From Somniosus microcephalus (Eukaryota): 64,000 bases of DNA. The DNA lies in NCBI GenBank assembly GCA_052327205.1, contig CM126210.1, positions 184,264,001 through 184,328,000 of the forward strand. The letters run 5' to 3'. Within the stretch, counting starts at the first letter, position 1. Each line of letters opens with the position of its first letter. The notes below the pieces were generated by a model. It did no database searches and was not told where the DNA came from. It worked only from the letters and a program-made list of their open reading frames with translations. Shown here piece by piece: positions 3,502 through 62,848 of the stretch. The position numbers and the translations under genes are program-made.

Positions 3502-3682
3502 GCCTTAACTGGGTCTCTGAAGCCTTTTTAAGCTTCCCGCTCGCGCCTCCCGCCGACACTCGCGGTGTGAGGCCTTACCTGGGTCTCTGAAGCCTTTTTA
3601 AGCTTCCCGCTCGCGCCTCCCGCCGACACCCGCAGTCTGAGGCCTTACGTGGGTCTCTGAAGCCTTTTTAAGCTTCCCGCTC
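3502..3682 (-). repeat. 70-bp tandem monomers (~2.5 copies) at the CR1 5' end
   Basis: gggtctctgaagcctttttaagcttcccgctc at 3511, 3581 and 3651. Confidence 0.9.
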
Positions 3683-12816: not shown

Positions 12817-13757
12817 GCTCTGAGTGCTGGGGCAATTAGAATATGTAAATAATAATGGTGCTTTACCTGGTGAAAGGCCCTCTTCCCAAATCAGATTGTG
12901 GGAACGCCGGATTCGCTGGCTCCTAGGCTCACACAGTGATTTTGGCGCCAACATTCGGCAGACTGCAGCAGCTTGGCGTCGGCCAGAGCAGCCTGGTCCA
13001 GGTGGCTGTTTGGCACTAACTCAAGCACTGTTTCAGAGGCTGGCAGGAGAGCAGGAAAGCAGTCATCCTAACAGAGAACAGCATCTGCCTCTCCCATGCA
13101 GCCAATGCCAGTATTTGGGGCTGTGCTTCAGCACCCGCACTGCTCTGCGCAAGAACAGGAATGAGATAATGCTTTGGAAGATCTTTATCCCAACCTCTTC
13201 CAATTGGGGGAGGATGTAGATGAATGATCTCCCTCCTCCTATTCGCTTCTGCTCCCTTGTTGTCTGCCAACTTGTCTTGCCAGAAGAAAGGGAGTGTGTT
13301 AGTGTGTGGGCTGGTGAAAGTTGGTAAAAAGGCTGCTGTCAGGGTAGAGTAGTGTTGCTAGTGCATGGAAGATGGCACAGGGGCAAGGATGTGAGCGGCA
13401 AGGGGAGCAATTAAGAGGACAACAGACAAGAGGTGCAGAGTGTGCCAGTAGCAGCAGAGGTGGGTTAAGAGGAGTGTGCACCTGTGATTGGAGGAGAGTG
13501 ATGAGAAGTGGAGTAGGGAAGGCTTGTGAGTGCTGGGACTACAGATGGTGCAGGACTGAGGAGAGAGTAAAAAATATGAGTAGGAGTCTCACCTTAGCAG
13601 CTCTGGTGAGATCACTGAATTTGCTCTGGCATTGCATTCAGGTCCTGGGTGCAATGCTCCTGCCATTCACCTACCACTCCACCCCTGACCACTGTTCTTC
13701 TTCTTAGGCAGTCCCTCGGAAATGGGGATGACTTGCTTCCACACTAAAAATGAGTCC

Positions 13758-17951: not shown

Positions 17952-20181
17952 CTATTTATGTCGTATCTTCCTCTTACACATGCTCCTACGTGGTGCTTCC
18001 CCTGTGGCTTCAGCAGATGTGGAGGCCCCTTGCTCAATTTCCTGCTGCTCCTGTCTCAACACCTTTGGCAGGCATCCTCTGGGGTTGTGAGCCTGTGAGG
18101 GCTCGCCAACAGTCTGCTGCTCCTGCGGCTGTGCAGGGGTTGAGACGCCGATCTCAGTTGGGTGTGGACTCTGGTGGGGCTCTGACCAAGGGCTCTGCAG
18201 TGGCATGGTAGTGTGAGTGCTTGGAGAGGAGCCCCCACTTCCTTGATGTCTGCCACCAACCTCCCTCTCATGGGTCAGGTCCCTCTCAGTGCTTGAGAGC
18301 ACCTTGCTGCACATCAGGGAGGCCATGGGGACCCGTATCTGCACTGGCAGTCCTACTCAGAAGGACTTCCATGAAGGTCTGATTTCTCTGTTCAATAGCT
18401 GACCATTGCTCCTCCAGAGATGTCATTCTATTCTGAACTCACCATGTTTTCTGCACTCTGGCGACTTATCACCTCCATGGAGGTTGCCATCCTTTCCATG
18501 GTGATGCATTCATGCGCCAATGATTCCACAAAGGCTCTGCTCAAGTTCGCTATGGACTCCTCCATTCGCTCCACACTCGCAGTGATTCTGGAGACAAAAC
18601 CTGCCAGAGACCCCTGCATCTGTTCCTGGAGTTCCAGCACCGCTGATCTTATGGATGGACCCAGAGGCAGAGGGTCGACATGCAGCTGAGCCGAGCTGGC
18701 AGAGTCCTGCGCCCTCCGACTAGGACTCTCCATTGCTGTCCCTGTCTCCACAATCTGCTGATGCTCACTTGTGAGCTGTGATACACCAGGTGACAACACT
18801 ACTCTATGACCCGAAGGTCCCACCGAGGTGTGAGTGTCTGCGCTGGTGCTGGATGCACTGAATTCTGCTGACGCTGCGCCCTCAGAGGTTGCAGCTTCCT
18901 CTTGAGGCTCATGCTCTTCCTCCTGGCTAGTGGGGACGGGTGCTTGCGATGGTCCTTTGGGGGAGTAAAGGAAAGAGTCAGAGATGTAATGCCAAGGTTA
19001 CATGCACATTGCATATTGCAGATGATCATAAGTCCGTCTGTTAGAGCTTCAGAATCATTATCAGTGACTTATGCAATGTCAATGAGAGAGATGGAAAACA
19101 ATTCTGTCACCAGCTTGCTGTGATGCACCCCTCTGTCCGTCCCCCACTTGTGCATCTTCCTCCACTCCTACGATCTCCAGGACCGCCTACTCCCAGGGGG
19201 TGAAGTGGGCTACTGAGGGTGGCCCTCCTCCTGTCCTTGCTCTTTCTCGCTTATTGTGAGCTCTCTTTTCCTGCAATGAGGGAGACAAGTGGAGTTTGAG
19301 TGAGAATGAAGGAGTGAGTGTAGAGATTGCATAGCATAGATACTTAGAAGGAGACAAAGATGGAGTGAGGTTGCAAGACCAAGGGCCCTCCCTGTGTGTT
19401 GTCAGTTGTGTTCAAAGCATCAGAGTGATAGGGAGTGTGAGGGTTGCATAGTCGAATAGTTAGGTGAATGTGACCATAGAGAGAGAGGGAATGGGTAAGG
19501 GTGCATGGATGTCAGTGTCAAGTGGGATGCGGAGGAAGAGATTGCTAAAGCTGAGCGCTGGTGAGGAAAGGCAATGGGGATCAGATTGAGGGTGATGGGA
19601 AATTCATACTCACTTTTCCAGTGCGCAGAAGGTCATGAAATCTCTTCCTGCATTGAATCCAGGTTCTGTGGGTTACTGATAATGAGTTGACCTCCTCTGC
19701 CACCTAGATTCATGATGTGCCTCAATAATTCCGAGACTCGAAGTTAGCAGAACAAAAACAAGGCTTTTATTAACTTAGAACGTAACACGTAAGAGAGAGA
19801 GATGTCTTCCTTCTGGAGACTGAGGCCAGACTGAAACTAGCTTACAAACGGGGCCAGGTATGGGCGGAGCCCTACACACAGCACATTCCAGCACATTCCA
19901 GTATACAATACAGCACATTCCAGTACACAATACAATGAGGTCTGGGGGAAGGGAAATGACACTGAAACCGATCTCAGTCACAGGCAGTGGTGAATGGAAT
20001 ATTTCATCACAATTCACCCAGCCTTGGTCTGCTGGGGAGGCTTCTTCCTCCCTGAAGAAGGAAAGAGCACCTCTTTATGAGCTCTTGTTCCCTCAACTAA
20101 AGCCTGCAGGGCAACGTCATCAAACCTGGGAGCAGACCTAAGTCTCTCGCTGGTTATTCTTCCTCCAGGTCCCTGTAGCAT
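17952..20181 (-). pseudogene. H1 Myb/SANT-like gene, 3 exons, exon 1 split by solo LTR
   Basis: APRFDDVALQALVEG...VLFP, then WIQCRKRFHDLLR and GT donor; C-terminus ATGEAPRRS. Confidence 0.8.
19713..20011 (-). mobile_element. Solo LTR
   Basis: TG...CA ends; 5-bp TSD ATTCA/ATTCA; AATAAA on minus strand. Confidence 0.85.
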
Positions 20182-21348: not shown

Positions 21349-21622
21349 TTAAAGGGTGGAAGATGCCTGTGCGTGAATTCTTTTAACGTGGGGTGGCCGT
21401 TGCACACCAGCTACCACACAGGCTTGACAGAGCAAGGTCTTGGTCAAATGGCAAGGGGATCCAAGATGATTGGAGATCAGGCTGTGCTACATCGGCCTAG
21501 CACACTCACACAAACATACTCCTACTGTCCTCCTCCCTCCTTCCCACAGGTCCTCTCTGCCTGGGTTTCATAGGCTGCAGTGTGGTCCTTCCGACCCCGC
21601 TGCTGGTCCACGCTGCACCACT

Positions 21623-22600
21623 CCTGGGCCTCGACCTTGCTGCTGGGCTCGTCCTCGCTCATGGGTCCCGTCCTCGCTCCTGGGCCTCGACCTTGCTGCT
21701 GGGCTCGTCCTCGCTCATGGGTCCCGTCCTCGCTCCTGGGCCTCGAGCTCGCTCCTGGGTTCCGTCCTCGCTCCTGGGCCCCGTCCTCACTCCTGGGCCC
21801 CGTCCTCACTCCTGGGTCCCAACCTCGCCCCTGGGTCTCGTCCTTGCCCCTGGGCCTCATCCTCGCTCCTGGGTCCCGACCTCGCCCCTGGGCCTCGAGC
21901 TCTCTCCTGGGCCCCAACCTCGACCCTTGGCCTCGTCCTTGCCCTTAGGCCCCCTCCTCGCGCCTAGGTCCTGACCTCGCTCCTTGGCCTCGAGCACTCT
22001 CCTGGGCCCCGACCTTGCCCCTGGGCCTCGTCCTTGCCCCTGGGTCCCGACCTCGCCCCTGGGTCCCGACCTCGCCCCTGGGCCCCGTCCTCACTCCTGG
22101 GCCCCGTCCTCACCCCTGTCCTCACCCCTGGGTCCCGACCTCGCTCCTGGGCCCCGATCTCGCCCCTGGGCCTCGTCCTTGCCCCTGGGCCTCGTCCTCG
22201 CTCCTGGGCCTCAAGCTCTCTCCTGGGCCCCGATCGCGCCCCTGGGCCTCGTCCTTGCCCCTGGGCCTCGTCTTCGCTCTTGGGTCCCAACCTCGCTCCT
22301 GGGCCTCGAGCTCTCTCCTGGGTTCCATCCTCGCTACTGGGCCCCCTCCTCGCTCCTGGGTCCCGACCTCGCTCCTGGGTCCCGACCTCACTCCTGGGTC
22401 CCGACCTCACTCCTGGGCCTCAAGCTCTCTCCTGGGCCCCGATCTCGCCCCTGGGCCTCGTCCTCGCTCCTGGGTCCCGACCTCGCTCCTGGGCCTCGAG
22501 CTCTCTCCTGGGTTCCATCCTCGCTCCTGGGCCCCCTCCTCGCTCCTGGGCCCCGTCCTCGCTCCTGAGCTTCGACCTCGCTCCTGGGCCTCGACCTCCT
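21623..22600. repeat. 19-bp GC-rich minisatellite (~50 units) in the RTE 5' region
   Basis: ctcctggg recurs at 21733, 21752, 21771 etc.; unit ~cgctcctgggcctcgtcct. Confidence 0.95.
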
Positions 22601-23973
22601 TATAGTGTGTCTCCTTCCAGTGAGTGTGACCCATGGTGTCTCCTTCCAGTGAGTGACTGACCACTGTTGCACGTGACTTGACTATACATCCTTCTGCCAT
22701 CAGAGGGAAATAGCAGCTCCACCCTTCTGTTGGCCTCCTGCTCCATCACCTTCGGTGCAGTGTTGAAGAACCCGGGGATGGGGGCCTTTGCTGCAGCACC
22801 TCTGCTTGCCATTTTTCACTGTGTAAAGATAAATCAGCTCACAGCAGCCAAAGTGTACCTCCCCTTTAAGAGGCACAGGCTCGCTTTCAATGGTGTCAGT
22901 GACACCCGATTTCCAGACCTCCCAATTGTTGAGCTGTCAATCAACAGTGCAAGGAACACTGGCAGTTCGCCAGCCATATTAAAATGAGGCACAGGCTCCA
23001 ATTTCACGCACGCCTCTCGCTCGGCTCTCATTTCAACACAACGCCGATTTTGCACCAGTTCCTGGCAATAACCAAATTTGTTGGCCGACATTAATACAAA
23101 ATTCCTTGATACAATATTCTATTGCTCAGCACTTTCTTTTGCTTTTTACATTTAGAAATTTAGAATTTGGTGCTTATTTTTGGGCTCAGAAATAAGGAAC
23201 TATTTATTGTGGAGTGGTATTCAAGGACTTCTATAATGGGGTCAGTGCTGGACTCATGCCACAAGTTGACTTGTCTTATCATGTTTCGTCTGAGTTTTGT
23301 AATGCTGCCATCGAGGCAGAATTGGACACGAGGTTTGGCTGCCTGAATGGGATCTGTAGGGCAGTCATTAGTTGTGGAAAGGATCTGGAAATTGTCTTTG
23401 TGTAAATACAGGGTCTTGATAGTTGAACAAAAAATGCAGTGTGAGAAGGGCAAGCTATATGACGTCAGTTAAGCTTTCTTGAGATAGGTCAACTTAACAG
23501 CTCACTGGAGAAAATAGCAAATGTTACTTCAATTAGGTAATCACATTGGTGCTCTGGAATCCATCATGCAATGTAAAAAGGTCAATTGCGGAGCACCAGG
23601 AGCTAAGACATATAGGAGGAAAAATTCAGTATCGCCCTGTTTGGGGCGCCGTTATCAGCCGTGCGCAAAATTTAGCGCCTGGCGCTAATTATCGCCTCCG
23701 ACAGCAAACTTGGCTTTTATTGCCCCTGGAGGTGATTGGAGCGCTAAATCAGCTGCAACACACCTCTCAAGGCGCTAAGGCCGAGGAGCGAGGCGCTACC
23801 TCAGAGGGCGGGTGCAGTGCAGGTACTGTCAGTTACCAGTTGAACACAGACACACTGGCGCTGGTCAGTTCTTAAAGGGGAGGGTCGATCTTGCTCTCCA
23901 GCCACACCCTGCTCATTGGAGCCTTGAATCTCGGCTTGGACAGACCTGTGGCTAAATCTTGCAGGCAAGGACT

Positions 23974-26009
23974 ATGGGGAGGTCCAGGGAGCGAGCACAT
24001 CGCTTCAGCGAGCGGGCCTTGGAGGCTATGGTTGGCGCGGTGGAGCGCAGAAGATCTATACGGTACCCAGAGAGTGGCAGGAGGCCTTTGCCACGCGAGT
24101 ACAGAAGAGTGTGGAGGAAGGTGGCTCAGAGCATCTCCTCAAGGAGCATGGTGCCCAGGACCCATATCCAATGTAGAAAAAAGTTCAACGACCTCACTCG
24201 GGTCGTCAGGGTGAGTGACTTCTTTTCAAAACCTCTCCATCTCTCCATCTCAACCTCACTCTATGGCCAGAGGGTCTTAAAAGCCCCAATGCCCAACACT
24301 CATCCAACACCTATGGCCCTTTCATCAAAGACACATGCACATTCCACATTTTGCATACAGTAAGGGCTATTCAACTATGGGATGCACATCAGGCAAGACC
24401 ATGGTTGCATACAGTAAGGGCTATTCAACTATGGGATGCACATCAGGCAAGACCATGGCTGCATACAGTAAGGGCTATTCAATTGTGGGTGGCACATCAG
24501 GCAAGACAATGGCTGCATACAGTAAGGGCTATTCAACTATGGGAGGCACATCAGGCAAGACCATGGCTGCATACAGTAAGGGCTATTCAACTATGGGAGG
24601 CACATCAGGCAAGACCATGGCTGCATACAGTAAGGGCTATTCAACTATGGGAGGCACATCAGGCAAGACCATGGCTGTATATTTACTCAGAAGCCGTCCT
24701 TTTTCTTGCAGGCCAAGCTATCTCATAATAGGAGACAGCAGCAACAGACGGCTGGAGGGCGGCCTCAGCTGCAACCCCTCAGCGATCTTGAGGTGCGCAT
24801 CCAGAGGATTGTGGCAAGCCAAGTGATTGGTCCCGTCGCCACTGGAGACGCCGACCCCGTTCTGGACAGCAATGGTAAGGTCATCACCTTTTTGTTATCT
24901 CTCCTTCCACTTGTTCCTCATAACACCAGCTTTTGACACTTTCAACCCAACTTACTAAATCGCTGCATTCATTCCTCCCTTGCTGCCACCCTGTCCTCAC
25001 GCTAAAGCCACTCTTGTATCTCCCTGCTTTCAGATGGCGATTCACCAGTTGAGGAGACGGGCCCTCAAGCTGCCAGTGGGAGTGAAGCTGCAGGCGAGGA
25101 GGAAGAGGAAGCCGGAGCATCAGCGCCACCCTCTCCCGAGGAAGCCCATGCCCACACTGGGAACACGCCTTCCCTGGAGGGCAGCAGGGGGGAAGGGTCC
25201 GATGAGGGTGGAGCTCCAGGACCCAGCGGGCTGCAGCAACGCGATAGGAGTAGGGAAGCTCAGGGGCCTTCTCCCCGGGGGGAGAGTATGCCAGCGAGTC
25301 CTACTGCACTGATGCAGAGGAGGAGCGGCTCCTCGCTGAAATGAACACCAAAGCAGTGCACAGGCACACTGAGCTCATGGGTGCAGTGGGAAGCGTGCCC
25401 GAATCAATTGAATCACTGGCAAGGAGTGTGGAGCACTTCGCAGTAGCACAGGTGGATGCCACGCAAATGCTTAGTGCTGCAATTCAGTCACTGGCTGCCA
25501 TGAGCCCATCTCTGACTGTTCTCATGCAGACTCAGATTGAGGCCACGCGAGCACTGACTGCTGCCATCCTCGCTGGTTTGGACACATTTCCCCGGGGCTC
25601 TCACCGCGCCGCAGCAGGCCAGCAATCTGTGCTCCAGCAGGTTGCTCCGGATGCTGAAGTACTGCCCTGTGGGAGTGCCAGTGTGTTGGTCGAGCAAGGA
25701 GTTGCTGTCCTCTCTCAAGATGACAGCATTCCTGCTGCCACCACTGTAACTTCTCCACTGCACTTGCCACCACCTGTAGTACAGACTGCTGCCGCCCATG
25801 CAGAGTTGGTGCAGTCTGCAGCCAGGCCCTCCAGGTCCAGAGCTGGTCGAGGCCGTCCTTCAAGGGCATCTGCAGTCTCAGGTTGTGATAATCAGCAGCC
25901 TTCCACCAGCCTTGCTGCAGCCACTGGCGTCCCATTACGGAGAAGCTGTACGGTTGGAAGGGGAGAAGTGCGCAAGGGAAGGAGATCACCCTCGAAGGGC
26001 AAAAAGTAG
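23974..26009 (+). pseudogene. H2 Myb/SANT-like gene; exons 23974-24210, 24712-24874, 25034-26009; frameshift in exon 3
   Basis: RFSERALEAMV...VWRKVA...QCRKKFNDL; GT-AG boundaries. Confidence 0.88.
24352..24675 (+). repeat. 54-bp tandem repeat x6 in Myb intron 1
   Basis: Unit tgcatacagtaagggctattcaactatgggaggcacatcaggcaagaccatggc. Confidence 0.97.
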
Positions 26010-26317
26010 GAGGTGTGACAAAATGTTGTTCATTTTTTTACTAAAGGCCAATGCTCGTGGTCAATTTTTTTTTAGTGTTTTGGACATTATCTCCAGGTTG
26101 TGAGAGCCAGTTATGTTAATGACTGTTTTTTTTTGTGTTTCTTTCTATTAGTTTGTCATGCAGAAATGACACAGAGTTTGTAAAATAAAAAAGTTTCTGT
26201 ATTCAAAATGTACATGTATGGTCTTTGGAATCATTGCTGCCTTGGCCGGCTTAGGGGTTGCGGGTTGGTTTCATTCATGTTGTTCTCAATGGCAGAAGCC
26301 ATTTCCTCAGCAGGGGC

Positions 26318-27547
26318 CTAGAAGCAGCTTGCTATCAGCCGTTGACGGACGGCCCTTCCAGTTTCAACATTGTGTGCCTCCCTCCCGCCTTGGTGCTGCT
26401 GATGGTCATCCTCCTCCTCTTCCTCCTCCTCTTCCTCCTCCTCTTCTGGTGGTGCTCCAAGGCCTGGTGGCATTGGCTGGGTCCTGAGGATTGCCAGGTT
26501 ATGCAGCATGCAGCACACAACAACGAAGTGGGAGACTCGCTCAGGCGAGTACTGCAGGGCTCCTCCAGAATGGTCCAGACAGTGGGACCGTTGCCTGAGT
26601 ACGCTGATTGTGTGCTCAACGATGTTCCTGGTAGCTTGATGGCTCTCGTTGTACTGCAGCTCAGCAGGGGTGTTGGGCGTACGGAGCAGTGTCATCAGCC
26701 AGGTGCACAGTGGATATCCCTTGTCCCCGAGAAGTCAACCACCTGGGTGATGCGGTGCCTGGAAAAGGTCTGCCACAGTAGTCTGGCGCAGGATGAATGC
26801 ATCGTGGCTGCTGCCAGGATAGTGGGCATTGACAGCAAGTATCAGCTGTCTGTGGTCACAGACCATCTGAACGTTTAAGGAATGGAAGCCCTTTCGGTTG
26901 CGGAAATCCTTGGCATTCTCATGCAGAGGACGCAAAGCCACATGCATGTAGTCAATGGCGCCCTGCACCATGGGGAAGCCCACTATCCTAGCAAAGCCCA
27001 TTGTGCGTTCTTGCTGCTTGTCCAGGGTCATGGGGAAAGAGATGTACTCTCGTCTCCTTTTATAGAGGGCATTTGTGACCTGACGGATGCAGCAATGCAC
27101 CGCGAACTGGGAGATATTGGCGATGTCCCCAGTAGCTGATTGAACTTAGCCAGTGGCATAAAAGTTCAGAGGCACTGTTATCTTCACTGTCACCGACAGA
27201 GACGTCCTGCTCCTCAGTTGAGGCTGCAGATCTGGCTGCAGCAGGTGGCAGAGCTCAGTGACCACCTCCTTGCTGAAGCGCAGCCTTCGCAAACACTGCT
27301 CCTCAGACATATTAATGTAGGAGAATTGTTGGTGAAATACCCTGGGAGGGTACGGTCTCCCGTACAGAGGCCTGTTGGCCCTCCTCCATCTGGCCATGAT
27401 TGCCACTCTCTCTCTGCATCTCTGTGCCCTCCGAATCTGATGGCACAGGACAACGCCCCCATTCATTGCAGCCCTCATAGTATCTTGGCAATCAAAGTAA
27501 TGAAGGTCAAAAACCAAAGTACCTGCAAAGTTATAGTCAGAAGCCAA
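26318..27547 (-). pseudogene. H2 HARBI1-like transposase, disrupted
   Basis: Fragments 27146..27547, 26735..27100, 26318..26695 with GAIDYMHV, GSSHDA, CCMLHN. Confidence 0.92.
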
Positions 27548-28214
27548 AACTATTTCAGACAGCGTTGACTTAATGCAGAAGTCCCTCTTTCTCTCTCTCT
27601 CAAAATCTCTCTCTCTCTCAGAACGAGTGGTGCAAAAATGTCTACCACAGAAAAAGCCAGGAAGAGGCCACCTTTAAATAGCGCCCCCCCAGCCCCACAG
27701 CGACTGTGTAGCGTTCCAGTTTACCTGTCGTTGGTAGTGCCAGGTGGAAAGGAGGGGGGCGCCACTCAATTTCCGTTCCAGGGTGCCCCATGGGCATTGC
27801 ACGCTCGAATGACGTCAAGATCTGCGTGCGCAGGAGATTGGGCGATAATGTTTAGTGCCGCCGCAAAATGTCCGGTCAATTCCATGAGAGGTGCAGATAT
27901 CACCTCGCCCGGGCGCTAGTTGCTTTGCGCCCCATTCGCGCCCTCTTAAGGCGCTAACGGGAGGCGCAAACCAACTGAATTTTTCCCCCATAGGACCCTT
28001 CCCATTTAATGTAGTTCAGTATATTATAAATGTACTGTAAATATTCCTTGCTGACCCCAAGTCACTCCCTAATATTGTTCTGAGTCCCAGAGCAGCCTGT
28101 CACTCAAATCTATTTGCCATTTTCTTCGCTGGGCTGTTACGAAGGAGTGCTGCATCCAAGCAGATGTGATCTATCTCAAGGAAGCTAAATGTGCAATCTT
28201 GCACATACACAGCA

Positions 28215-34569: not shown

Positions 34570-34596
34570 CCCTGGGTGTGGTTAGACTGGCTATAA

Positions 34597-34775
34597 ATGG
34601 CGTCTCCCGCACTCTCCCTTCTTCTCCGCTGTGGCTCAAAATGGCGTCTCCTGCGCTCTCCCTTCTTCTCCGCTGCGGCTCAAAAATGGCGTCTCCCACG
34701 CTCTCCCTTCTTCTCCGCTGCGGCTCAAATGGCGTCTCCCACGCTTTCCTTTCTTCCCCCGCAGATGCTGCTCAG
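34597..34775 (-). repeat. ~44-bp tandem repeat (~4 copies) in the Gypsy leader
   Basis: atggcgtctccc..ctctcccttcttctccgctgcggctcaa repeated. Confidence 0.9.
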
Positions 34776-35504: not shown

Positions 35505-36612
35505 TATCCAGCATTAAGCATTGCTGGGCTGTTTACAGTTACACGGAGCTTTTCTTAGTTACACAATGCTGTGCTTAGGTAATGGTTTTTACAGAATGTT
35601 GGCCTAGAAATTGGACAGTGCTCAAAAACGGCCGTGGGGATCACGATGCGCGATCAACTCGTGTCCTTTCCTTCCAATGCAGGCAGCATGCAAACATCAT
35701 GCTGTCTGCTAATTTAAGTCACAGTAGCGTGCAGCCCAGCACTGAAGGCGCTGCTGAGTGGCTGCACACCTCAGCAGGGGGCTCAAGTTCGTGCAAGGCT
35801 AGCACCACTTAAAGCTAGCCTGCACTACTGAAAGCCAGCTTGCACCTCTTAAAGGGGAGGTGCATTCTGGCTGCAGCAGGTGCTGGAAGTGGGTGGGGAA
35901 GACATTCTGAACAGGAAGTAGACATAGTGATGGCGCAACAGGGGAGAGAGCAGGCTCCAAGATTTTCCAACGCAGCACTGGAGGCTTTGGTGCAGGAGGT
36001 GGACAGGAGGAGAGATGTCCACAGGAGACCATGAAGCCCTCCAGACAAACTGAGAAGGCAATGGGATAAGATAGCCATCGCGGTCAATGCCAGCAGTGTA
36101 GCCCCAAGGACCTGGATGCAGTGCTGCAAGAAGGTTAATGACCTCACACGAGTGGTCATGGTCAGTGAATTCATCTTCAAATGCCATATCCTTACAACTG
36201 AACCTCTAGGCTCAGACGCTGCTCAAATCACCACACCCCCCTTCACTCACCTACCAACAATCTCTATCAATCACGGCTCATACCTCACACTCATAGCTTC
36301 ATCTCACCCTCACATGCTTAGCACTGCTGCAAGCCTCATACCCACATCTCACAGCTTGCATACACTGGCAGCTATTCAACCATGACAGGCACATCACCTA
36401 AACACATTGAACCACACTCACTGATACACTTCCCTCACTCTTGCAGGACAATTTGGATACAAACTAATGCACCCATGTCTGGGAGCAACTGGTCTGAGCA
36501 GAAGCCTTGAAGTAAACTCCCACACCACTCCCTAGCGACTTCAGCAACTTCAAACAAGATAAAATACCAGTAGAAATCAATCAGCAACTAACCTGAAAGT
36601 AGTTGATGATCC

Positions 36613-41996: not shown

Positions 41997-43447
41997 GTAT
42001 TAAATGTGAAGTTGTTTAAAACTATAACAAATATATTTGCTATCCCTTTGTCATTCAATGTTGAATAATTAGAAACCCTAGCAACAATATAACACACATA
42101 AATATAATACATATTACTTTATGACCTAGTTAGTTAGTCTACAGTTAATTCTATTTTTCATAAACAAAAATGCCATCAATATCTCCATCAATCTAAAATT
42201 TGCTGTCATCCCTGAGAACCATCTGGAGGAAGTGTCATATTATGTCCATGTTACTAAAACATCTTAATCTTGTTAGGATTTTCTCTTACTTTTTAAGTCT
42301 GTTTTTCTTGGCGGGGGGAGGGGGTGGGGTCATTTGCTTTTCAATTAGTTGACCAGCTTATTTCAGATTTTTAGATAAATACAAATTTCTTTCTGTTCTG
42401 CAGGCAATAAAACTTTTTTTAAGGAGTTTTATTCACACTTGCCTTTGTTCCTTCAGTTTATTTCTCTCTCGCAACAATTTCACCTCTCCTTTTACATTCT
42501 TATTTGTATTTTTTCTCTGTTTCCTTTTTAAGTGTACCATTTTCATATAACAAAGTATGGTAAACCTTTCGTTATTACTTATACAATGCAATGATGTGAA
42601 CAGCTCCTAAACATACTGAAGCATGACTTGGGTGTGATTTCATTGTGATGAAAGTGTAGCACGAGACTTCAGGCTTTCCTCCCTCAACTAAAAAATGAGG
42701 TTGGTCGAACAATTTGTCATGAAGATATTTAATGCCATTTCTTTTCATTTTCCACGAGCAATTGAAAATAGCCAGTTTTTTGCTTCAACAGCAGAAAATG
42801 CTGGCAACACTCAGCAGGTCAGGCAGCACCGTGGAGAGAGAAACAGAGTTAACGGGCCAGTAATTCCGGTCCCAACGCGTGAGTACGGACGGTGTACTCA
42901 CGCGTGGGCCCGTTGGAAGTGCCGGATTCCAGCATGCACTGCGCGCACGCGTTGAACTTCCTTCGTTTCGACAGGTTTGCGCGTGTGCAAGGGCCTGGAC
43001 TTTTTGGAAATTAAAAAAGGAGGCGTAAGGAGTGGATTCTTGAAGGTAAGTGGTCTATTATTTAAAATTATTACATTTTTTCCACAGCTTCATTGGCCTA
43101 GAAATTCAGTTTTGCCAGTTTTGGGGCGCTAACGTTAGCACCCGCCTGACTTTAGCGCCCGCCCCAAAGTTGCGCCCCCTTCGCCGAAATTCAGTTGCTT
43201 CGCCCTAAGAGGTTGCTGGAGCGCTAAAAGAGGCGTTACACGACTATCTTTAGGCGCTAAGCCGGCGGTGCAGAGGGATAGCGCCGAGGCCGGGCGCAGC
43301 GCGGGTGCGGTCATTTTTTGATTGACAGCAGACCCCGTGGCGCCGGCCAGCTCTTAAAGGGGGAAGGGACGATTTGGTCTGCTGCCACGCCCTGCACACT
43401 GCAGCTTTCAAACTAGGCCTCAACACTGCTGCTGAGCCCAATGAGCC

Positions 43448-45397
43448 ATGGCAACGCATGAGAAGGCCCGTGAGCGTGCCCTGCGCTTCTCAGAGCGTGA
43501 TCTGGATATCATGCTGACAGCATTGGAGAAGAGGCGCAGGATCTTGTTCCCAGACAATGGCAGGAATCCCACCCACCGTGTCTACACCAAAGCCTGGAGG
43601 GAGATCGCCACCAGGGTGTCATCCTACGGCGATGCCCCCAGGGACAAGGTGCAATGTTGGAAGAAATACAATGACCTGACCAGGATTGTCAGGGTGAGTA
43701 CCCTTTCCACTCTCCTCCTCATTCTTGCATGTACACCTGACATGATGGGCAAAGGGACCTGAAAGGCCTAATGGCCAGCCCTCAGCCAGCAGCTTTGGGA
43801 CAGTCATGGGCATCAATTGCACATTCTGCACTTTACACACTGGCCAAGCTATTCCACCATGAGAGGCAGTGCACACTAGATCAGAGCTACACTCTGGCCA
43901 AGCTATTCCACCATGGGAGGCAGTGCACACTACGTCACGGCTACACACCGTACTTAGAGCCCGTCCTTTCTCTTGCAGGCTAAACTTGTGAATAATCGCA
44001 AGCGCCGCGACATCACCGGGGGAAGCCGCGCCAAGTTCCAGAAGCTCACTCCCCTGGAGGAGCGCGTGAGTGGCCTCATGGGAGGCCACGTGATTGTGCC
44101 CAGAGCGTGCGGAGAAGCTGACCCTCCGCTGCCCGGCAGTGGTCAGGACCTCGCCTTTTGGCCCTCTCTCGTCGCACTTGCGCATCCGAGCTACCTCCTT
44201 TGCCACTGTGCCACCAATGCGCTGAATGCCACCAGTCATGACTCCCTCGCTGACGCCCTCTCCTCACTCTGAAGCTACTCTCGTGCCTTTCTGCTTTCAG
44301 CTGGTGATGAAGAGCTCCCTGAAGCTGCCAGTGACAGCCCCTCCGAACAGGAGGAGGAGGAGGAGGAGGAGGAGGAAGAGCAACCCGGACCATCAGGGGA
44401 GGACTCAGGTCCCGCAGCAGAGGGCGAAGTGTTGGACACATCTTCCCTGGATGAGAGCCTGGAGCAACTTTCGGAGGGGAGTGCAGCTGCTGGGACCAGT
44501 GGCATCCAGCCACCCAGGAGGGCTGCGGGTGGGCCGCGGCCTTCCCCCCAGAGGGGGGAAGGATCGGAGGGGAGTGCAGTTGCTGCGGACATTCGGTGCC
44601 AGCAACGTGCCAAGGGTCGCCTAGCTCGGACCCCTGCTCCCCAGCGGGAGAATCCCGCCTCCAGTCCGCCCACCTTCACCTCGGAGGAGGTGCGCCAGCT
44701 GGACCAAATGGCTTAGGATTCGGACCGCCGCCACACAGAGCTCATGCAGATGGTGGGACAGATGCCTGAGGCCATCGAGTCGCTGGCGACCAGTGTGCGG
44801 GAGTTTGCGGCATCAAATGCCGAGAGTGGCCGGATGATGATGGAGGTAGTGGAACGGATGCCTCCGGCGATGGAGTCGCTGGCTGATGCCGTCAAGTCAG
44901 TGGCGGATGTGATGCGGGAGCAGACCAGGGCAACAGGGGCACTCACTGCTGCCACACGCGCTGCCTCAGCCAGGCATCGCCAGGACACCCGCCGCGCTGC
45001 AGCAGCACAGCGATCCGCCCTTCGGCTGATTGGTGCGGATCGTGCAGTGCGTGCCCGGGCGAGTGCCAGCGTGCGACATCACCAGCCAGCGCCTCCAATA
45101 CGCCAGCTTGCCCACATTGCACCATCCGTCGCCGCCACTCCCCCAGTGGAGCATCAACGGCAAGCGGCTGGAGCTGATGGTGGGCATGCACATGTGCGCC
45201 AATCAACAGCCGGCCCCTCAAGGCCCAAAGCCCGTGTAGGCCGCCCCCCAAGGCCATCTGGCGGAAGGACATCTGACCCTCAGGCGCCTTCCCCCAGCCT
45301 CGCAGCAGCCACTGGGCAGAGCTTGCGGAGGAGCAGTAGGCCGGGCAGGGGCACCAAAAGGCTGGACAAGGTCTCGCCCTCGCGGGCCACTAAGTAG
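43448..45397 (+). pseudogene. H3 Myb/SANT-like gene; exons 43448-43693, 43979-44141, 44301-45397 (~500 aa); single in-frame TAG at 44714
   Basis: RFSERDLDIML...KAWREIA...QCWKKYNDL; frame preserved across predicted introns and across the TAG. Confidence 0.88.
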
Positions 45398-45759
45398 AGG
45401 GTGTGGCCAGCTTTCATTTTATATGGCGGTGGACATCTTTATTTTGCCCATGGTTGTTTTGTTTATGGGTATGTTTTTTGCGTTAAGGCCGAGGTTGAGG
45501 CCTGGTTTGTTCAAATGTGGAGTTACTCCTCCCCAGGTTGTGGGAGTGAATCGTTTGTTGCACTTTTTGTGGGGGCCGTTGATTGTTTTTGGGATTCATG
45601 TGGGAAGGGGTTTCATTTTTGTCAAATATAAATTTATCTTTATTCAGACAGTGTCCATGGTTGTTCTTGTTAGTCTTTGTTGCCTTCGCCGGCTGAAGGC
45701 TTGCGGAGTGGCTGCATTCATCTTGCTTCATGGCCACAAGGCATTCCCTGACAGGGGGC

Positions 45760-46908
45760 TTAGAAGTTACGTTCAATAAGCTGGCGACGGACGGCCCTTG
45801 GACCTTGTCGCTCCCTCCTGGGAACGTACTCCTCCTCCTCCTCCTCCTCCTCCTGCTCCTCCTGCTCCTCCTCCTGAGGTGGTGGTCCAACGTCAGGTGG
45901 CAGTGCCTGAATCCTGCGGAGAGCCAGGTTGTGTAGCATGCAGCAAACTACGACAAATTGGGAGACCCGGTGCGGCGAATACTGCAGAGATCCGCCGGAA
46001 CGATCAAGGCAGCGGAACCGCTGCTTGAGGACCCCAATAGTTTGCTCGATGATGTTTCTGCTCCTTTGATGGCTCTCGTTGTATGCCTCTTCAGCAGCGG
46101 TCCTGGGCGCGCGGAGCGGGGTCATGAGCCAGGTACACAAAGGATAGCCTTTGTCCCCGAGTAGCCATCCTCTTGGGGGAGGCTGTGCCGTGAACATGTC
46201 ATGCACAGTACTCTGCCGCAGGATAAAGGCATCGTGGCAGCTGCCTGGAAAGCAGGCATTGACAGCCAGGATGCGCTGCTTGTGGTCACACACCAGCTGC
46301 ACATTGAGAGAATGGTAGCCCTTCCGGTTGCGACACTGCTCGCCAGGCTCCAGAGGTGCCCGCAAAGCCACATGCGTACAGTCAATGGCGCCCTGCACCA
46401 AGGGGAAGGCTGCGAGTCTAGCAAATCCCACTGCACGCTGATGTTGGTTCTCCAGGGCCATGGGGAAGGAGATGAATTGGCGTCTCCTTCTGAAAAGGGC
46501 ATCGGTCACCTGGCGGATGCAGCGATGCACGCCGAACTGGGATATGTTAGCTATGTCCCCAACAGCGGATTGGAAGGAGCCGGTGGCATAGAAGTTCAAT
46601 GCCACCGTCACCTTCACTTCCACCGACAGAGACGTCCTGCACCTGAGCTTTGGACGCAGATCTCTGCGAAGCAGGTGGCAGATCTCTGCAACCACCTCCT
46701 TTCGGAATCTCAGCCTTCTTACACATCGCGCGCCACTCATGGTGAGGTAGGAGCACTGCTGGCGGTATACCCTGACTGGGTAAGGCCTATGTTGCCGATG
46801 CCTGTTGCCCCCTCTGCCTCTAGCCAGGGCTGCCCCTCTGACCCCGCGTCTGCGAGCCCTACGCACATGGCGCTGAAACTCCGCGTTGGCACCCCATGCA
46901 GCCCCCAT
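45760..46908 (-). CDS. Intact HARBI1-like DDE transposase (~382 aa from ATG 46908)
   Basis: Uninterrupted ORF with GAIDCTHV, GSCHDA, LLGDKGY, IEQTIGVLKQRFRCL, CCMLHN. Confidence 0.95.
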   Translation of the reverse strand: MGAAWGANAEFQRHVRRARRRGVRGAALARGRGGNRHRQHRPYPVRVYRQQCSYLTMSGARCVRRLRFRKEVVAEICHLLRRDLRPKLRCRTSLSVEVKVTVALNFYATGSFQSAVGDIANISQFGVHRCIRQVTDALFRRRRQFISFPMALENQHQRAVGFARLAAFPLVQGAIDCTHVALRAPLEPGEQCRNRKGYHSLNVQLVCDHKQRILAVNACFPGSCHDAFILRQSTVHDMFTAQPPPRGWLLGDKGYPLCTWLMTPLRAPRTAAEEAYNESHQRSRNIIEQTIGVLKQRFRCLDRSGGSLQYSPHRVSQFVVVCCMLHNLALRRIQALPPDVGPPPQEEEQEEQEEEEEEEEYVPRRERQGPRAVRRQLIERNF

Positions 46909-47854
46909 CAAATGCTGGCAAACAGTCACATTTCCAACAGGGCACTTGCAGCGCTTTGGCCTGAGTCCAAAAATACCTGAGCTATTGCTGCACGAAACCA
47001 GTTAGCTCTCCTCCTTGTTGTGTGTCCAGAAATCCGTTGCACAAGAGTGTTTGCTGCAAAATGGCTGCCCTTTATACTGCAGGGTACGTGCCCTTTAATT
47101 TGCGATCCCCGGGGCCCGCGTCGGCTGTGTTGCGTTCCATTTTACAAACGCTCTGGCCGCCAGCCGCACAATGGGGCGGTCCGACTGAAGTTTGGAATCG
47201 GGGCGCGCAAAGGGCATTGCACGAGGATGTGACGTCATTTTCTGCGCGCGCAGCCGGGCGGCGCTAAACTTTGCGCTGGTGCTAAGGGTCAACTTAATTT
47301 GGGGCGAGGCGCAAACTGCGCTGCGCCCGGGCGCTACACGCATAGCGCCCGAAATTCACTTCTCTTAAGGCGCTAACTGCTGGCGCAACCAACTGAATTT
47401 CTAGGCCATTGTTTTTAAGGACTTTACAGTAAGGTAAGTTTATTTTTAGACCCGAATTCGTAAAAAAAAAAAATTTCAAAAATGTTATTAATTGTTTTAA
47501 ATAGTTTTTTAAAGTTATTTATAGTTTATTTAATTATTGGGATGTTTTTTAAAATTTTTATTAAAGTTAAACTAGTCTTTTGGGCGCCCATACTTTTCAT
47601 GAGTTTGACAGTCTTTACTATCAAACTCATGAATGAGTTTCCCTCCCCTGATTGGCTGCAGAGTGCTCACCTGATCCCAGCCGGCACATCGCACTAACTA
47701 CGCCGCTGGATCAGGTAAGCACATCGCGCCGACATCTGAACCGGGCCAGTGACAGGAAATGCAAACAGGTCCGGGATTCAGATGTCAGCGCGCAGGGTGA
47801 GTGCAGATCGGGGGCTTGCACGCGCGGCAAGCCCCCGATCCTAATTTCTGGCCC

Positions 47855-51618: not shown

Positions 51619-53774
51619 CTATTCACCCTTGTGCAATCCCTTAGTGCTCCTCGTTACTGTGCCTTTGCCTACTCTAGTGCTCCTATGAAGTTTTGGCCCA
51701 GTGGCTGCAGCAGGGCTGGTGGAAAGCTGCTGAGTGTCCGTGCGGGAGACTTCAGATGGCCTTGCAGGACGCCCTCGACCAGCTCTGGGCCTGGAAGGCC
51801 CGGCTGTGGACTGCACCACCTCAGCATGGGCGGCAGCAGTCTGGGCTGGCTGGATGACAGGTAGCGACTGTCTTGTTTTGCACACTTTGTACAAAAATAA
51901 TAAATTGCAGGACAACGGAGTATTACAGTTTAAACTCTTTTAATGAAGCATCAGGTCTGTAAACTTTCTCAATCAATACAGCACCGTGTGGACAAGATGG
52001 AGTCAGGACCCTGGGTCCTCCAAAACAATAGCAGTCCTTACAGATGCCTGCAGGCCAATGACAATTCAGCATGTGATCACATGTGAATATAATAGGCATT
52101 CCTGACAGATGCCTGCGGGCCAATGATAATTCAGTGTGCAAATCTTACAGCGACAAGGGTAATGGCGGAGTGGCAGTGGTGGGAGCAGGAATGCAGTCAT
52201 CCTGAGAGAGGACAGCAGGTTCCTGCTCCACTGACCCCCTGCCACTCCCCCGGGGCAGCACCTCATCATCCCTAATAAACTGTTGGAGCACAGATTGCTG
52301 GCCTGCTGCGACACCGTGAAAGCCCTGGTCGACAGTGGTAGACCCAGTCACGATGGCAGCAGTCAGAGCTTGCGTGGCATCAAGCTGAGACTGCATGAGA
52401 GCAGTCCGAAATTGGATGTCACCAAGCATAGACTGCATTACAGCACTAATACGACATGTCGCTTCCGCCTGTGCTGTAATGGAAGCTGCCAGATCGCCCA
52501 TCACACGCGGTATCAGGTCTGGGTCACCACGGTCTCTCTGGGAGTCTACCATCCTTTGCAGACTGGAAATGATGAGCTCCATTGTGTGCGCAGAGCCCTG
52601 TGCAATGTTGGAGGTGGACTCCTCCACGCTCCTTACCATTGCGAGAGGCTCTCGGGCACCCTTGCCATTGCACTTATCATCTCCGTGTGCATGCCCATCA
52701 CCCTTCTTCTAAAGACCTCCCTATCGAGGCTCTCATCTGAGTCCTGTGCAGCAGAACTCGCCCTCCGGGGAGCTGCCCCCAAGCTACCCTTTCCCCCGGA
52801 TTTGCTGCAGCCCACTTGTCCCCGGTGCCTCTCCCTTTGCTGATCCCGCTACTATACTATCCTCTAAAGAACACGTAGTGCCAGTATCTGAGATGATGCC
52901 TGCGGGTGAGACATGCACTGACGCGGTGTGTTCTTCCTCGTCCTCTTCTCCCGCCTCGCTCTCTACGGTGCCCTCAGGGACAGGATGCTTAGGTGCTTGC
53001 TCATTATCTGAAAGCATAAAGGCACAAGAGTCAGGTTAAGGTGAGAGGAGGGGGGCAGGAAGGGATTAGCTGGAAAGTGCAAAACACTTGTGCAGTGAGG
53101 AGGAAGTGGGATGTGAGAAGGAGGAGTAGGGATGAACATACCGTTGTTGTCCCCAAGGGGGGTCAACGTCGCCAGTGGCCATGGTGCCCACCACCTGCGC
53201 CCAATAATCTGCAGCACTCTTTCCTCCAGCGCAGACGGTGGTTGGGTGTCGGCTTGTCCCCCACCTGTGCACTCCTGCTCCCTCCTGTTGTGAGCCACCT
53301 TGGCCTGCAATAGAAAGGAAATTATGTGAGTGATTGTGGAGCAATGTGTTTGGGTGATGTGCCTGCCATAGTTTAATAGTTGTCATTGTGTGCAAAATGT
53401 GAGGTGTGTGTGTGAGTGTTGGCAGGTATTGATTGTTAGTGGGTGATTGCTGGGGGTGTGGTGCTTTGGGCAGTGTGTGAAGACTGTGCTTCGGATGGTA
53501 GTATGTAGCATTTGTTGAAGCATTGACTCACCCTGACCACCCGAGTGAGGTTGTTAAATTTCTTCCTGTACTGTGTGTGGGTCCTGGAGACCTCAGTGCG
53601 GCCCGAGACATGCTGGGCTACCTCCCTTCACATGGTGCGGATGACTTATGGTGAGGGCCTCCTGCCACTTGCTCGGTAGAGCACCGCCCTCTGTCTCCCC
53701 ACAGCGAACACCAACGCCTCCAATGCGTGATCGCAGAATCTGCAGGCTCTCTCCCTGGGGCGTGGATCTGCCAT
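51619..53774 (-). pseudogene. H4 Myb/SANT-like gene (exons ~53774-53532, 53304-53142, 53007-51619)
   Basis: RFCDHALEALV; AKVAHNRREQECTGGG; C-terminus AATGPKLHRSTR. Confidence 0.85.
51869..52149 (-). mobile_element. Solo LTR
   Basis: TG...CA ends; 5-bp TSD GCGAC/GCGAC; internal direct repeat cagatgcctgc.ggccaatga. Confidence 0.85.
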
Positions 53775-61232: not shown

Positions 61233-62848
61233 TTAGGATTGTGGCTTTTTTCTTTTACGCCTGCTTCTACAAGGTGCAACCCCTGTGGCTTCAGCAGAGG
61301 TAGAGGCAGCCTGTTCACTTCCTTGCTGCGACAGCATAGACACTCTTGGCAGATGTCCTCAGGGTTTGGAGCCTCTGATGGACCTGCTAATGTCTGCTCC
61401 TCCTGCGACTGTGCAGGAGCAGACTCGACCATTGCGATCCGTGGAGGCATCTGGGGCTCTGACTGAGGGGGAAGCAACAGGGGAGAAATGTAAGTGCTTT
61501 GAGAAGCGACCCCACTTCCATTTCCCCTCTCATCATCATCCCTCTCATGAGCCAGCCGCACTTCCCTGCTAACAAGGAGCTGGAGAACACCTTGCTGCAC
61601 AGCAGTGCGGCCATGAGGACCCAAATCTACATTTAGATCCCTCCTATAGAGGAGGTCTATGAGCCTCTGCCATCTGTTGTCCTTAGCTAGCAAGTGCTCA
61701 TGTGAGTGGCGTATTAGCTGCTCCATGCAGGTGGCCATCCTTTCCATGGACGAGCCTAAAGTCGCCATCGCCTGCAACACAGTAGTGCCCTTGTTCGAGA
61801 TAGACTCCTCCATTCTCTGAACATTTGCAGACATCATGGCTGCAAAACCTGCCAGAGCCCCCTGTTGCCCCTCCAAGATCACATTCTTTCTCGATGGCCC
61901 CCAAGGCTCAGCGTCTGCATGCCGCTCAGAAGAGCTTGGAGCATCCTGTGTCTCCAATGCTGTCCCTGTCAACACCATCTGCTCTTGCTCACTTGTGAAG
62001 TGTGAGACACCAGGTGATAACACTACTCTATCTCACACAGGACCCACCGAGGTGTGCGTATCTGCACTGGTGCTGGGTGCACTTGGGTCTGCTGACAATG
62101 CACCCTCAGAGGCTGGAGGCTCCTCTGAGGAGCCATCTTCCTCCTCTAGCTGGGCAGTGGTGGGGGCTCTTGATGGACCTGTGGGAGAGTAAAGAGATGA
62201 TTTAGAAATGTTATAATAAAAATGGGAAATGATACCATTATGCACATGATGAACGTTCACTGGCTGCTGCCATCAGTCACCATATGAGTGACTGCTGTAT
62301 GCCATGTGGCTGTATGAGATATAATTCTGTCACCAGGTTGCTGAGAGGAACCCTCTCCATCTCTCACCAATGCCAAATGGCCTCTTTCTGTGGTGTTACT
62401 TGGTATGATTGCATTAGGATGAGGGTGAATGTGAGGGGTGGTTAGTCAGATGGGGATGTGAGTATGTACATAGAGAGAGAGGGATGGGTGGATGTGCAAG
62501 GTATGTTGGGGTGAGTAAGGATGTGCATTAGTAGGCTTGGGAAGGCAGAGTGATAGGGATGTGATGAGAGGCACAGCAGGATGAAGGTGAGTGTGACATT
62601 GCACTCACCTTTCCTGGTCTTATCAGATCATTGAATCTCTTCCTGCACTGTACCCAGGTCCTCCTGACAACATCCCTGCTGTTGACCTCCTCAGCAATTT
62701 GGAGCCAGACTCTTTCAGTCTCCTGGGGAGGTCTCTTCCGCCCATCAGCAGGGAAGAGGACCTCCCTGCGTGCTCTGACTCCCTCCACAAGAATATGTAA
62801 GGATTCATCTGAAAACTGGGGTGCAGCCCTCTGTCTTTGTGAACTCAT
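61233..62848 (-). pseudogene. H5 Myb/SANT-like gene, exon 2 partly deleted
   Basis: APQFSDESLHILVEG...VWLQIA...QCRKRFNDL then GT donor; exon 3 similar to H1. Confidence 0.85.

Follow-up and report, generated by a model that had tools for sequence, protein, structure and literature searches.

Introduction

Is the 54-nt unit that is tandemly repeated in the first intron of a shark Harbinger Myb gene a functional module whose number matters, or an ordinary repeat expansion around a much smaller conserved element? The question is raised by a 64-kb stretch of Somniosus microcephalus DNA (the window) in which seven Harbinger copies or Myb remnants (H1–H7) lie amid retrotransposon pieces, two of them, H2 and H3, carrying arrays with the same period. 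A preliminary description of the locus proposed a functional, copy-number-variable cis module without known counterpart in PIF/Harbinger elements. According to the available text of two published accounts, vertebrate Harbinger elements combine a transposase with a Myb-like gene between inverted repeats and a target site duplication (TSD) of 3 bp, and the Myb protein is required for transposition (PMC9179366, PMC2836001). The features discussed are listed in Table 1.

Table 1. Positions in the window of Harbinger copies, Myb gene parts, 54-nt units and element ends
Feature	Position	Strand	Remarks
Harbinger copy H2	23615–27989		4375 bp; terminal inverted repeats of 16 bp, matching at 15/16; TSD ATA
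H2 Myb/SANT gene, coding exon 1	23974–24210	+	Pfam Myb_DNA-bind_5, E 4.2e-07
H2 Myb intron 1 (predicted)	24211–24711	+	501 nt; GT..AG; phase 0
H2 array	24352–24681	+	period 54; 6.1 copies; 96% matches
21-nt core, last H2 unit	24636–24656	+	76 to 56 nt upstream of acceptor; recurs in each unit
H2 Myb exon 2	24712–24874	+	contig of run X18 departs at 24874 into exon-3-like letters
H2 Myb intron 2	24875–25033	+	159 nt; one loose end in X18 is the spliced form
H2 DDE transposase	26321–27478	−	62% identity to H3 transposase over 386 aa; 2 in-frame stops
Harbinger copy H3	43095–47407		4313 bp; 16-bp inverted repeats, 16/16; TSD ATT
H3 Myb intron 1	43694–43978	+	285 nt
H3 array	43834–43948	+	period 54; 2.1 copies; 88% matches; perfect 7-nt direct repeat at boundaries
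H3 Myb intron 2	44142–44300		159 nt
H6 intron 1	36161–36446	+	single homologous unit; separate 58-nt duplication further upstream
H6 single homologous unit	36357–36410	+	in intron 1
H4 intron 1	53531–53305	−	single homologous unit
H4 single homologous unit	53341–53394	−	in intron 1
H7 (seventh Myb remnant), intron 1	13276–13592	−	degenerate core at homologous distance from 3' end
H1 intron 1	19271–19613	−	343 nt long; contains an internal duplication of 118 nt; copy resembling the core at 19460, at 190 nt from acceptor
TAGCGCC-bearing ends, examples	23673–23792, 27679–27950, 43125–43279, 47260–47369

Results

Harbinger copies and their Myb gene

H2 and H3 each comprise a DDE transposase and, convergent with it, a Myb gene of three exons, bounded by the inverted repeats and 3-bp TSDs characteristic of PIF/Harbinger ends, a layout shared with the vertebrate Harbinger elements in the accounts available. 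The H3 transposase matched Pfam DDE_Tnp_4 (E 3.7e-37) and also Plant_tran, identifying it as a Harbinger-type DDE transposase, and a Myb_DNA-bind_5 domain was present in both exon 1 translations (H2 and H3), identifying the second gene as Myb/SANT. H2 is a decayed copy with two stops in the transposase frame and a broken Myb frame; H3 is nearly intact, with an open transposase (382 aa) and a single stop within Myb exon 3. Ten of the best Myb relatives carry, without exception, the names of sharks or rays. In annotated relatives from these groups a DLT..R motif passes directly into K-[LV]-A-H-[NK], joining the exon ends predicted here; together with the X18 contig that departs at 24874, this supports the H2 gene model.

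The TSDs were ATA (23612–23614/27990–27992) for H2 and ATT (43092–43094/47408–47410) for H3 rather than TAA/TTA, and in this they differ from the TAA given in the available descriptions of vertebrate Harbinger. The heptamer TAGCGCC occurs in both orientations near the ends of H2, H3 and H4, which account for 19 of its 24 matches in the window, and is a candidate Myb binding motif.

Period, register and number of the 54-nt units

Within intron 1 six head-to-tail units were found in H2, two in H3 and one each in H4 and H6, a variation between copies typical of a variable-number tandem repeat (VNTR). Six tandem units before the 3' splice site of H2 intron 1, two of equal period and position in H3 and single copies in H6 and H4 had been reported previously, and each of these observations was reproduced. 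The H3 array lies in register with that of H2, and a core pattern allowing up to three mismatches matched the window 10 times, against 0.00 expected from 100 shuffles: six matches in H2, two in H3, one in H6 (36371) and one in H4 (53360–53380, minus strand). Units of H2 and H3 aligned without gaps and were more alike within than between elements, again as first described, with 48–54 of 54 positions identical within H2 (15 pairs) and 48 of 54 within H3, against 29–34 of 54 between the two (12 pairs).

The units of H2, H3, H4 and H6 all occupy one homologous phase-0 GT..AG intron, and in all four the core extends from 76–77 to 56–57 nt upstream of the 3' splice site. In H2 the array stops 36 nt short of the acceptor, immediately upstream of a branch-point-like hexamer, and starts 737 nt inside the element within Myb intron 1, a position that is not subterminal in the manner of the Medicago MtPH-A6-4 repeats discussed below. 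Both arrays of the window are tied to an element; free arrays could contribute to the high array depth in runs X1 and X18.

Four types of unit were distinguished in H2, units 4–6 being identical, units 1 and 2 having a two-base variant in common and unit 3 carrying four private changes. Identity of units 4–6 is what an assembly artefact inflating the array would produce, and because these units are identical their exact count could be mis-assembled; the four distinct types in H2, the two in H3 and the looped units in the independent run X1 make such an origin of the array scarcely credible. Elsewhere in the window, a GC-rich minisatellite with a 19-bp unit repeated 52 times lies upstream of H2 (21621–22598) and further short arrays lie at 3502–3682 (70 bp) and 34595–34756 (45 bp), tandem duplication being frequent in the region.

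Conservation of intron, unit and core

When the arrays were cut to one unit, the H2 and H3 introns measured 231 nt each and were 68% identical over 225 columns, the H4 intron measuring 227 nt. All non-coding parts of H2 and H3 were 64–68% identical, including intron 2, which is 159 nt in both and aligned gaplessly at 67%; the identity of 0.56–0.57 obtained with shuffled sequences comes from alignments in which numerous gaps are allowed, and these near-gapless ones cannot be measured against it. By part, H2/H3 identity in intron 1 was 71/100 for the body, 15/26 for the 26 nt preceding the unit, 33/54 for the unit and 27/36 for the stretch between branch point and acceptor, and the earlier impression that the rest of the intron is poorly conserved was not upheld. 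Within the unit, the matches were distributed as 5/14, 19/21 in the core and 9/19.

When four elements were aligned over 217 gap-free columns, pairwise identity averaged 0.84 in the core, where 15 of 21 columns were invariant across the four, against 0.54 in the intron body and 0.54 and 0.58 in the parts of the unit outside the core. The suggested comparison of motif with flank thus distinguished the 21-nt core but not the remainder of the unit, and the conserved entity is the core only, not the 54-nt unit as a whole. A column-permutation scan gave p 0.004–0.022 with a window of 21 nt, a length chosen post hoc, 0.11–0.44 with 15 and 0.01–0.08 with 30, and one window, the core, ranked best in H2/H3, H2/H4, three-way and four-way scans alike. 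In H7, which had no part in defining the core, 10 of the 15 invariant core columns matched against 4 of 21 columns elsewhere (p 0.0014), corresponding to match levels of 0.58 and 0.30. The equivalent scan of intron 2 was not significant (p 0.13). The core was not recognisable in the H5 intron, and in H1 it was missing from the canonical place and found only in the upstream duplicate, where its match (12/15 versus 10/21) is circular because the place was picked by the motif.

These data could reflect a wholly neutral history, in which a homologous intron evolves slowly along its whole length, the core is no more than an accidental cold spot and the arrays result from mere slippage. Such a history accords with a unit that is no better conserved than the body (33/54 versus 71/100), with the even 64–68% identity of all H2/H3 non-coding parts and with the loss of the core in H5. 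Comparable peaks also occurred elsewhere, as blocks of 18–19/21 in all five H2/H3 non-coding regions and as 20/21 blocks at other places in intron 1 in H1/H5 and H4/H6, and a peak of 0.84 was reached in 44–66% of simulations with rates varying in 10–20-nt blocks, though in only 0.8–2.9% without blocks. Given the simulations with blocks and the similar blocks in every H2/H3 non-coding region, the apparent constraint on the core may be illusory. Neutrality throughout accounts less readily for the core window being best in four scans and again, independently, in H7, or for the lack of a significant peak in intron 2, and on balance it appears an unlikely, if still weighty, alternative; real constraint on the 21-nt core is fairly likely.

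H1 (about 19470–19495) and H5 (about 62465–62490, minus strand) have in common a 20/21 block, distinct from the core, that ends in a CT run plus ATG and lies just upstream of the core position. The introns of H2 and H3 were identical at 260/385 positions (68%) versus 75/147 fourfold-degenerate sites (51%; Fisher p 0.0006), and those of H1 and H5 at 65–66% versus 45/86 such sites; a contrary case is Myb exon 3, outside the pool of 147 sites, with fourfold sites identical at 32/60 (H2/H3) and 32/41 (H2/H4). Codon periodicity was sought in intron 2 of H2 and H3 and was absent. The wider puzzle may be why the introns of these elements have diverged less than their fourfold-degenerate sites.

Structure, coding potential and protein binding

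The unit might alternatively act as a structured RNA, as a short peptide or alternative start, or as a site to which the Myb protein of the element itself binds. The hairpin described for the H2 unit can indeed be drawn, with 10–12 of 13 pairs in all six units, but it is peculiar to H2, since only 5–7 of 13 pairs form in H3, H4 and H6 (4/4), and its stability is no better than that of shuffled sequences (z −0.89 to +1.28 for all six unit windows, +1.26 for the array). Covariation, proposed earlier as a check, offered no support either: the unit consensus fold was weak at −0.41 kcal/mol with a structure conservation of 0.06, and 37% of column shuffles were as good. Rfam returned no match in the window at the gathering score and a single chance match (E 1.5), at the intron donor, with none below that E value in the intron. 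These results contradict a stable conserved RNA structure. In a whole-intron consensus fold the donor and the branch-point hexamer form 6 bp, both sides of which are changed in H6; this fold is likewise weak (−3.0 kcal/mol). Donor and branch-point consensus motifs are near-complementary in any case.

With respect to coding, the core contains an ATG with A at −3 in all four elements, and in three of the four its opening 12 letters translate as Y-S-T-M. The frames opened by this ATG are inconsistent (59, 14, 42 and 15 aa, the phase differing in H3), no codon periodicity was detected in four intron alignments, and for the array frames neither Pfam families nor proteins gave a match. Used in protein word searches, the array frame, the exon 1 read-through and the exon 1 alignment all yielded no matches (0 in 3/3), and no translated intron pieces occurred in the 150 Myb relatives covered, of 352. 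Of 235 candidate stretches in a metagenome scan one locus was retained, the Myb of which is distant (33%) and intronless at the homologous position, and the core-plus-acceptor pattern had no match in viral contigs and three in prokaryote genomes, which were taken as chance. On the opposite strand of H3, a stop-free antisense frame of 214 codons extends across intron 1, exon 2 and intron 2 (43619–44263, minus strand); it is probably due to chance, since the homologous frame is stopped in the H2 units.

A protein-binding site resembling the repeated motif of the element ends was also discounted, as none of the 24 TAGCGCC matches in the window falls in intron 1, an argument that depends on the heptamer being a Myb site. 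Taken together, the structure and coding readings of the unit are largely refuted, and the whole group of structured RNA, peptide or start, and own-Myb site is highly improbable.

The position of the core, about 30–50 nt upstream of the branch-point-like hexamer, would make a splicing or expression cis element its most natural role; it may also be a factor site at the DNA level. The core contains G, and the H4 and H6 introns are 9–10% G. A donor-like site was found in each of the six H2 units and, in a scan of H2, H3 and H6 that left out the minus-strand H4, nowhere in intron 1 of H3 or H6 beyond the true H3 donor. Conserved pseudo-donor sites of the P-element type were therefore not seen, the donor-like site being limited to H2 among these three.

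Expansion history and contigs of other sequencing runs

The unit is bounded by a direct repeat that is preserved at 7/7 positions in H3, 5/7 in H2, 5/7 in H4 and 4/7 in H6. Other lengths of the homologous intron 1 have been duplicated in H1 (118 nt) and H6 (58 nt), both duplications being degenerate (p 0.005 each). A search for hidden ancient periodicity in the single-unit introns of H2, H3, H4 and H7 was not significant (p 0.12–0.28).

Relative ages of the arrays were indicated by their divergence. H2 differed by 3.6–8% (6/166, 37/450, 17/219, 13/164) from four high-depth contigs of X18, a run of another organism, and the absence of any change in the 162 nt of H2 units 4–6 has a Poisson p of 0.003 or less. 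As these units are identical despite the stops and the divergence of the copy, the latest expansion or homogenisation in H2 probably followed most of its decay, although conversion from other copies could equally have made them identical. In H3, a near-intact copy, the two units have diverged from each other by 11%, and a pair has on that account probably long been carried by an active lineage; such persistence is also as expected of a selected module. At the six positions where the H3 units differ, H2 agrees with unit 1 at three, with unit 2 at two and with neither at one. Occurrence of the 54-nt period in two families can be attributed to one old, inherited and homogenised duplication or to repeated slippage at the boundary repeat, and selection on unit number is not needed for either. 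The boundary repeat itself could be a remnant of an old array rather than a cause.

Contigs of other runs, which do not span the locus, were compared with positions 24568–27600, a stretch that includes the last two H2 units only. Matching contigs numbered 53,739 in X1 and 20,456 in X8, indicating a very abundant family. The X1 figures that follow derive from 12 of 53 rows and from 24 of 3054 loose ends, among the matches listed. All five X1 loops among these matches lay inside the array, with lengths of 54, 54, 108, 53 and 95 nt (54 + 41), and three of the five thus showed the 54-nt period (54 or 108 nt). Their junction letters were unlike all six H2 units. Loop lengths and junction letters together indicate that other copies hold diverged tandem units, mostly of 54-nt period, in agreement with the family-wide amplification first proposed. 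Breaks at the core edges (24582, 24656) were observed in two of the five loops and one of the two array loose ends, also among the matches listed. The intron 1 junction did not occur among the 24 loose ends listed of 3054, which speaks neither for nor against it, since exon 1 lies beyond the stretch compared and a joint with it could not arise.

Of 30 bins, the one containing the array had the highest depth in X1 (11.5x the median of the other 29) and in X18 (11.2x), while its rank in the two organism D runs was eighth or ninth (1.3x and 1.4x), a weak hint, summed contig depth being no copy number, that array load differs between lineages. Intron retention as a reading of the X18 array depth was rejected: these are contigs, their RNA nature is guessed, and read-through of a very high-copy family is involved. 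Tens of thousands of contigs in shark-type runs match the Harbingers of the window.

These observations bear on the module as initially conceived, a dosage-sensitive unit whose number tunes Myb output and whose ancestral array was selected and then homogenised within families. An identical register in two families about 63% identical in transposase, tandem units of new sequence with a period of 54 or 108 nt in three of the five X1 loops among the matches listed, a constrained core beside the branch point and an H3 pair that is old relative to the decay of its copy all suit this proposal, as does the P-element third intron, an established precedent for transposon control by splicing in the available text of PMC7776569. 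Single-unit lineages exist, however (H4, H6), the newest H2 expansion seemingly came later than decay, lengths of 118, 58, 53 and 41 nt have been duplicated too, and the donor-like site present in all six H2 units is missing from H3 and H6. The preliminary description had named unrelated periods in other copies as grounds for refutation, and these duplicated lengths bear that out in part. A selected unit number is accordingly improbable. The same low standing applies to its widest form, in which an elasmobranch Harbinger clade would keep the core in a fixed 54-nt frame across divergent families and species, with unit number a heritable, fast-mutating dial on Myb splicing or expression and hence on transposition rate.

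Discussion

The explanation that we prefer, with somewhat better than an even chance of being correct, is an intronic minisatellite that is carried by the transposon and built around a mildly constrained core present once in the simplest copies, the number of units being tolerated. Intron 1 of the Myb gene in this shark-type Harbinger clade contains a 54-nt segment just upstream of the branch point with a short direct repeat at its boundaries. Misalignment at this repeat, during replication or during gap repair after excision, could then duplicate exactly that segment. From two copies on, slippage or unequal exchange would add, remove and homogenise units, dead copies included. Whether the first duplication was single or repeated, inherited boundaries and few indels would give the 54-nt period that is common to the families. 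The 21-nt core would be under mild purifying selection in active lineages, as the conservation scans weakly suggest, and is most likely a protein-binding cis element for Myb splicing or expression that would work as a single copy. Extra units would be tolerated, since branch point, pyrimidine tract and acceptor remain intact downstream, and unit number would not be under selection. The additional units have the look of a common repeat expansion, not of a control dial. What survives of the functional, copy-number-variable module of the preliminary description is therefore a number that varies, a common register and a constrained-looking 21-nt core; the 54-nt unit is not a conserved module.

Variable repeats are not new to PIF/Harbinger elements. 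In the available text on the Medicago subfamily MtPH-A6-4, an imperfect 60-bp repeat occurs in 2–35 copies in 18 of 23 members, the variation being ascribed to gap repair during proliferation, and a variable (TA)n tract (27, 8, 21) is found in a Medicago transposase intron (PMC2213677). The superfamily, the similar repeat size and the variation in number between copies are points of likeness. The MtPH-A6-4 repeats are, however, subterminal, restricted to one subfamily and built on a triplicated motif, whereas the shark unit lies in Myb intron 1, crosses families, is single in some copies and contains a 21-nt core. The supposition that nothing comparable is described in PIF/Harbinger thus fails for variable repeats as such, and holds for a repeat that lies in an intron of Harbinger Myb genes and crosses families, of which no report was found in the literature covered; supplements, Repbase reports and most subscription journals lie outside that coverage and could describe it. 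Neither tandem repeats nor splicing are mentioned in the available text of a fish Harbinger survey ('tandem' 0, 'splic' 0; PMC9179366), and the same applies to that of a 2026 nematode study (PMC13668399). The available part of the fish survey records no Harbinger in elephant shark and calls for examination of other cartilaginous fish. Already known, then, are variable-number repeats in PIF/Harbinger, and new is the intronic, cross-family form with a probably constrained core.

Two further systems are relevant. As far as the available text of PMC7776569 goes, third-intron control in the P element limits the transposition protein by splicing through an experimentally demonstrated, exonic, single-copy silencer with pseudo-donor sites. 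A donor-like site in each H2 unit recalls these pseudo-donors; the shark element differs in being intronic, in that its donor-like site is not conserved and in its regulatory role being hypothetical. In human intronic variable-number repeats, repeat number can modulate splicing (PMC13196383 and PMC8239992, in the portions available), but those repeats sit in host genes and the shark arrays in transposons.

The locus provides a clean natural case of a minisatellite that arises within a transposon at a fixed register and turns over family by family, and it points to a candidate cis element in a gene that has received little study, the Myb partner of vertebrate Harbingers. If unit number were functional, it would represent a transposon that tunes its own activity by a repeat counter.
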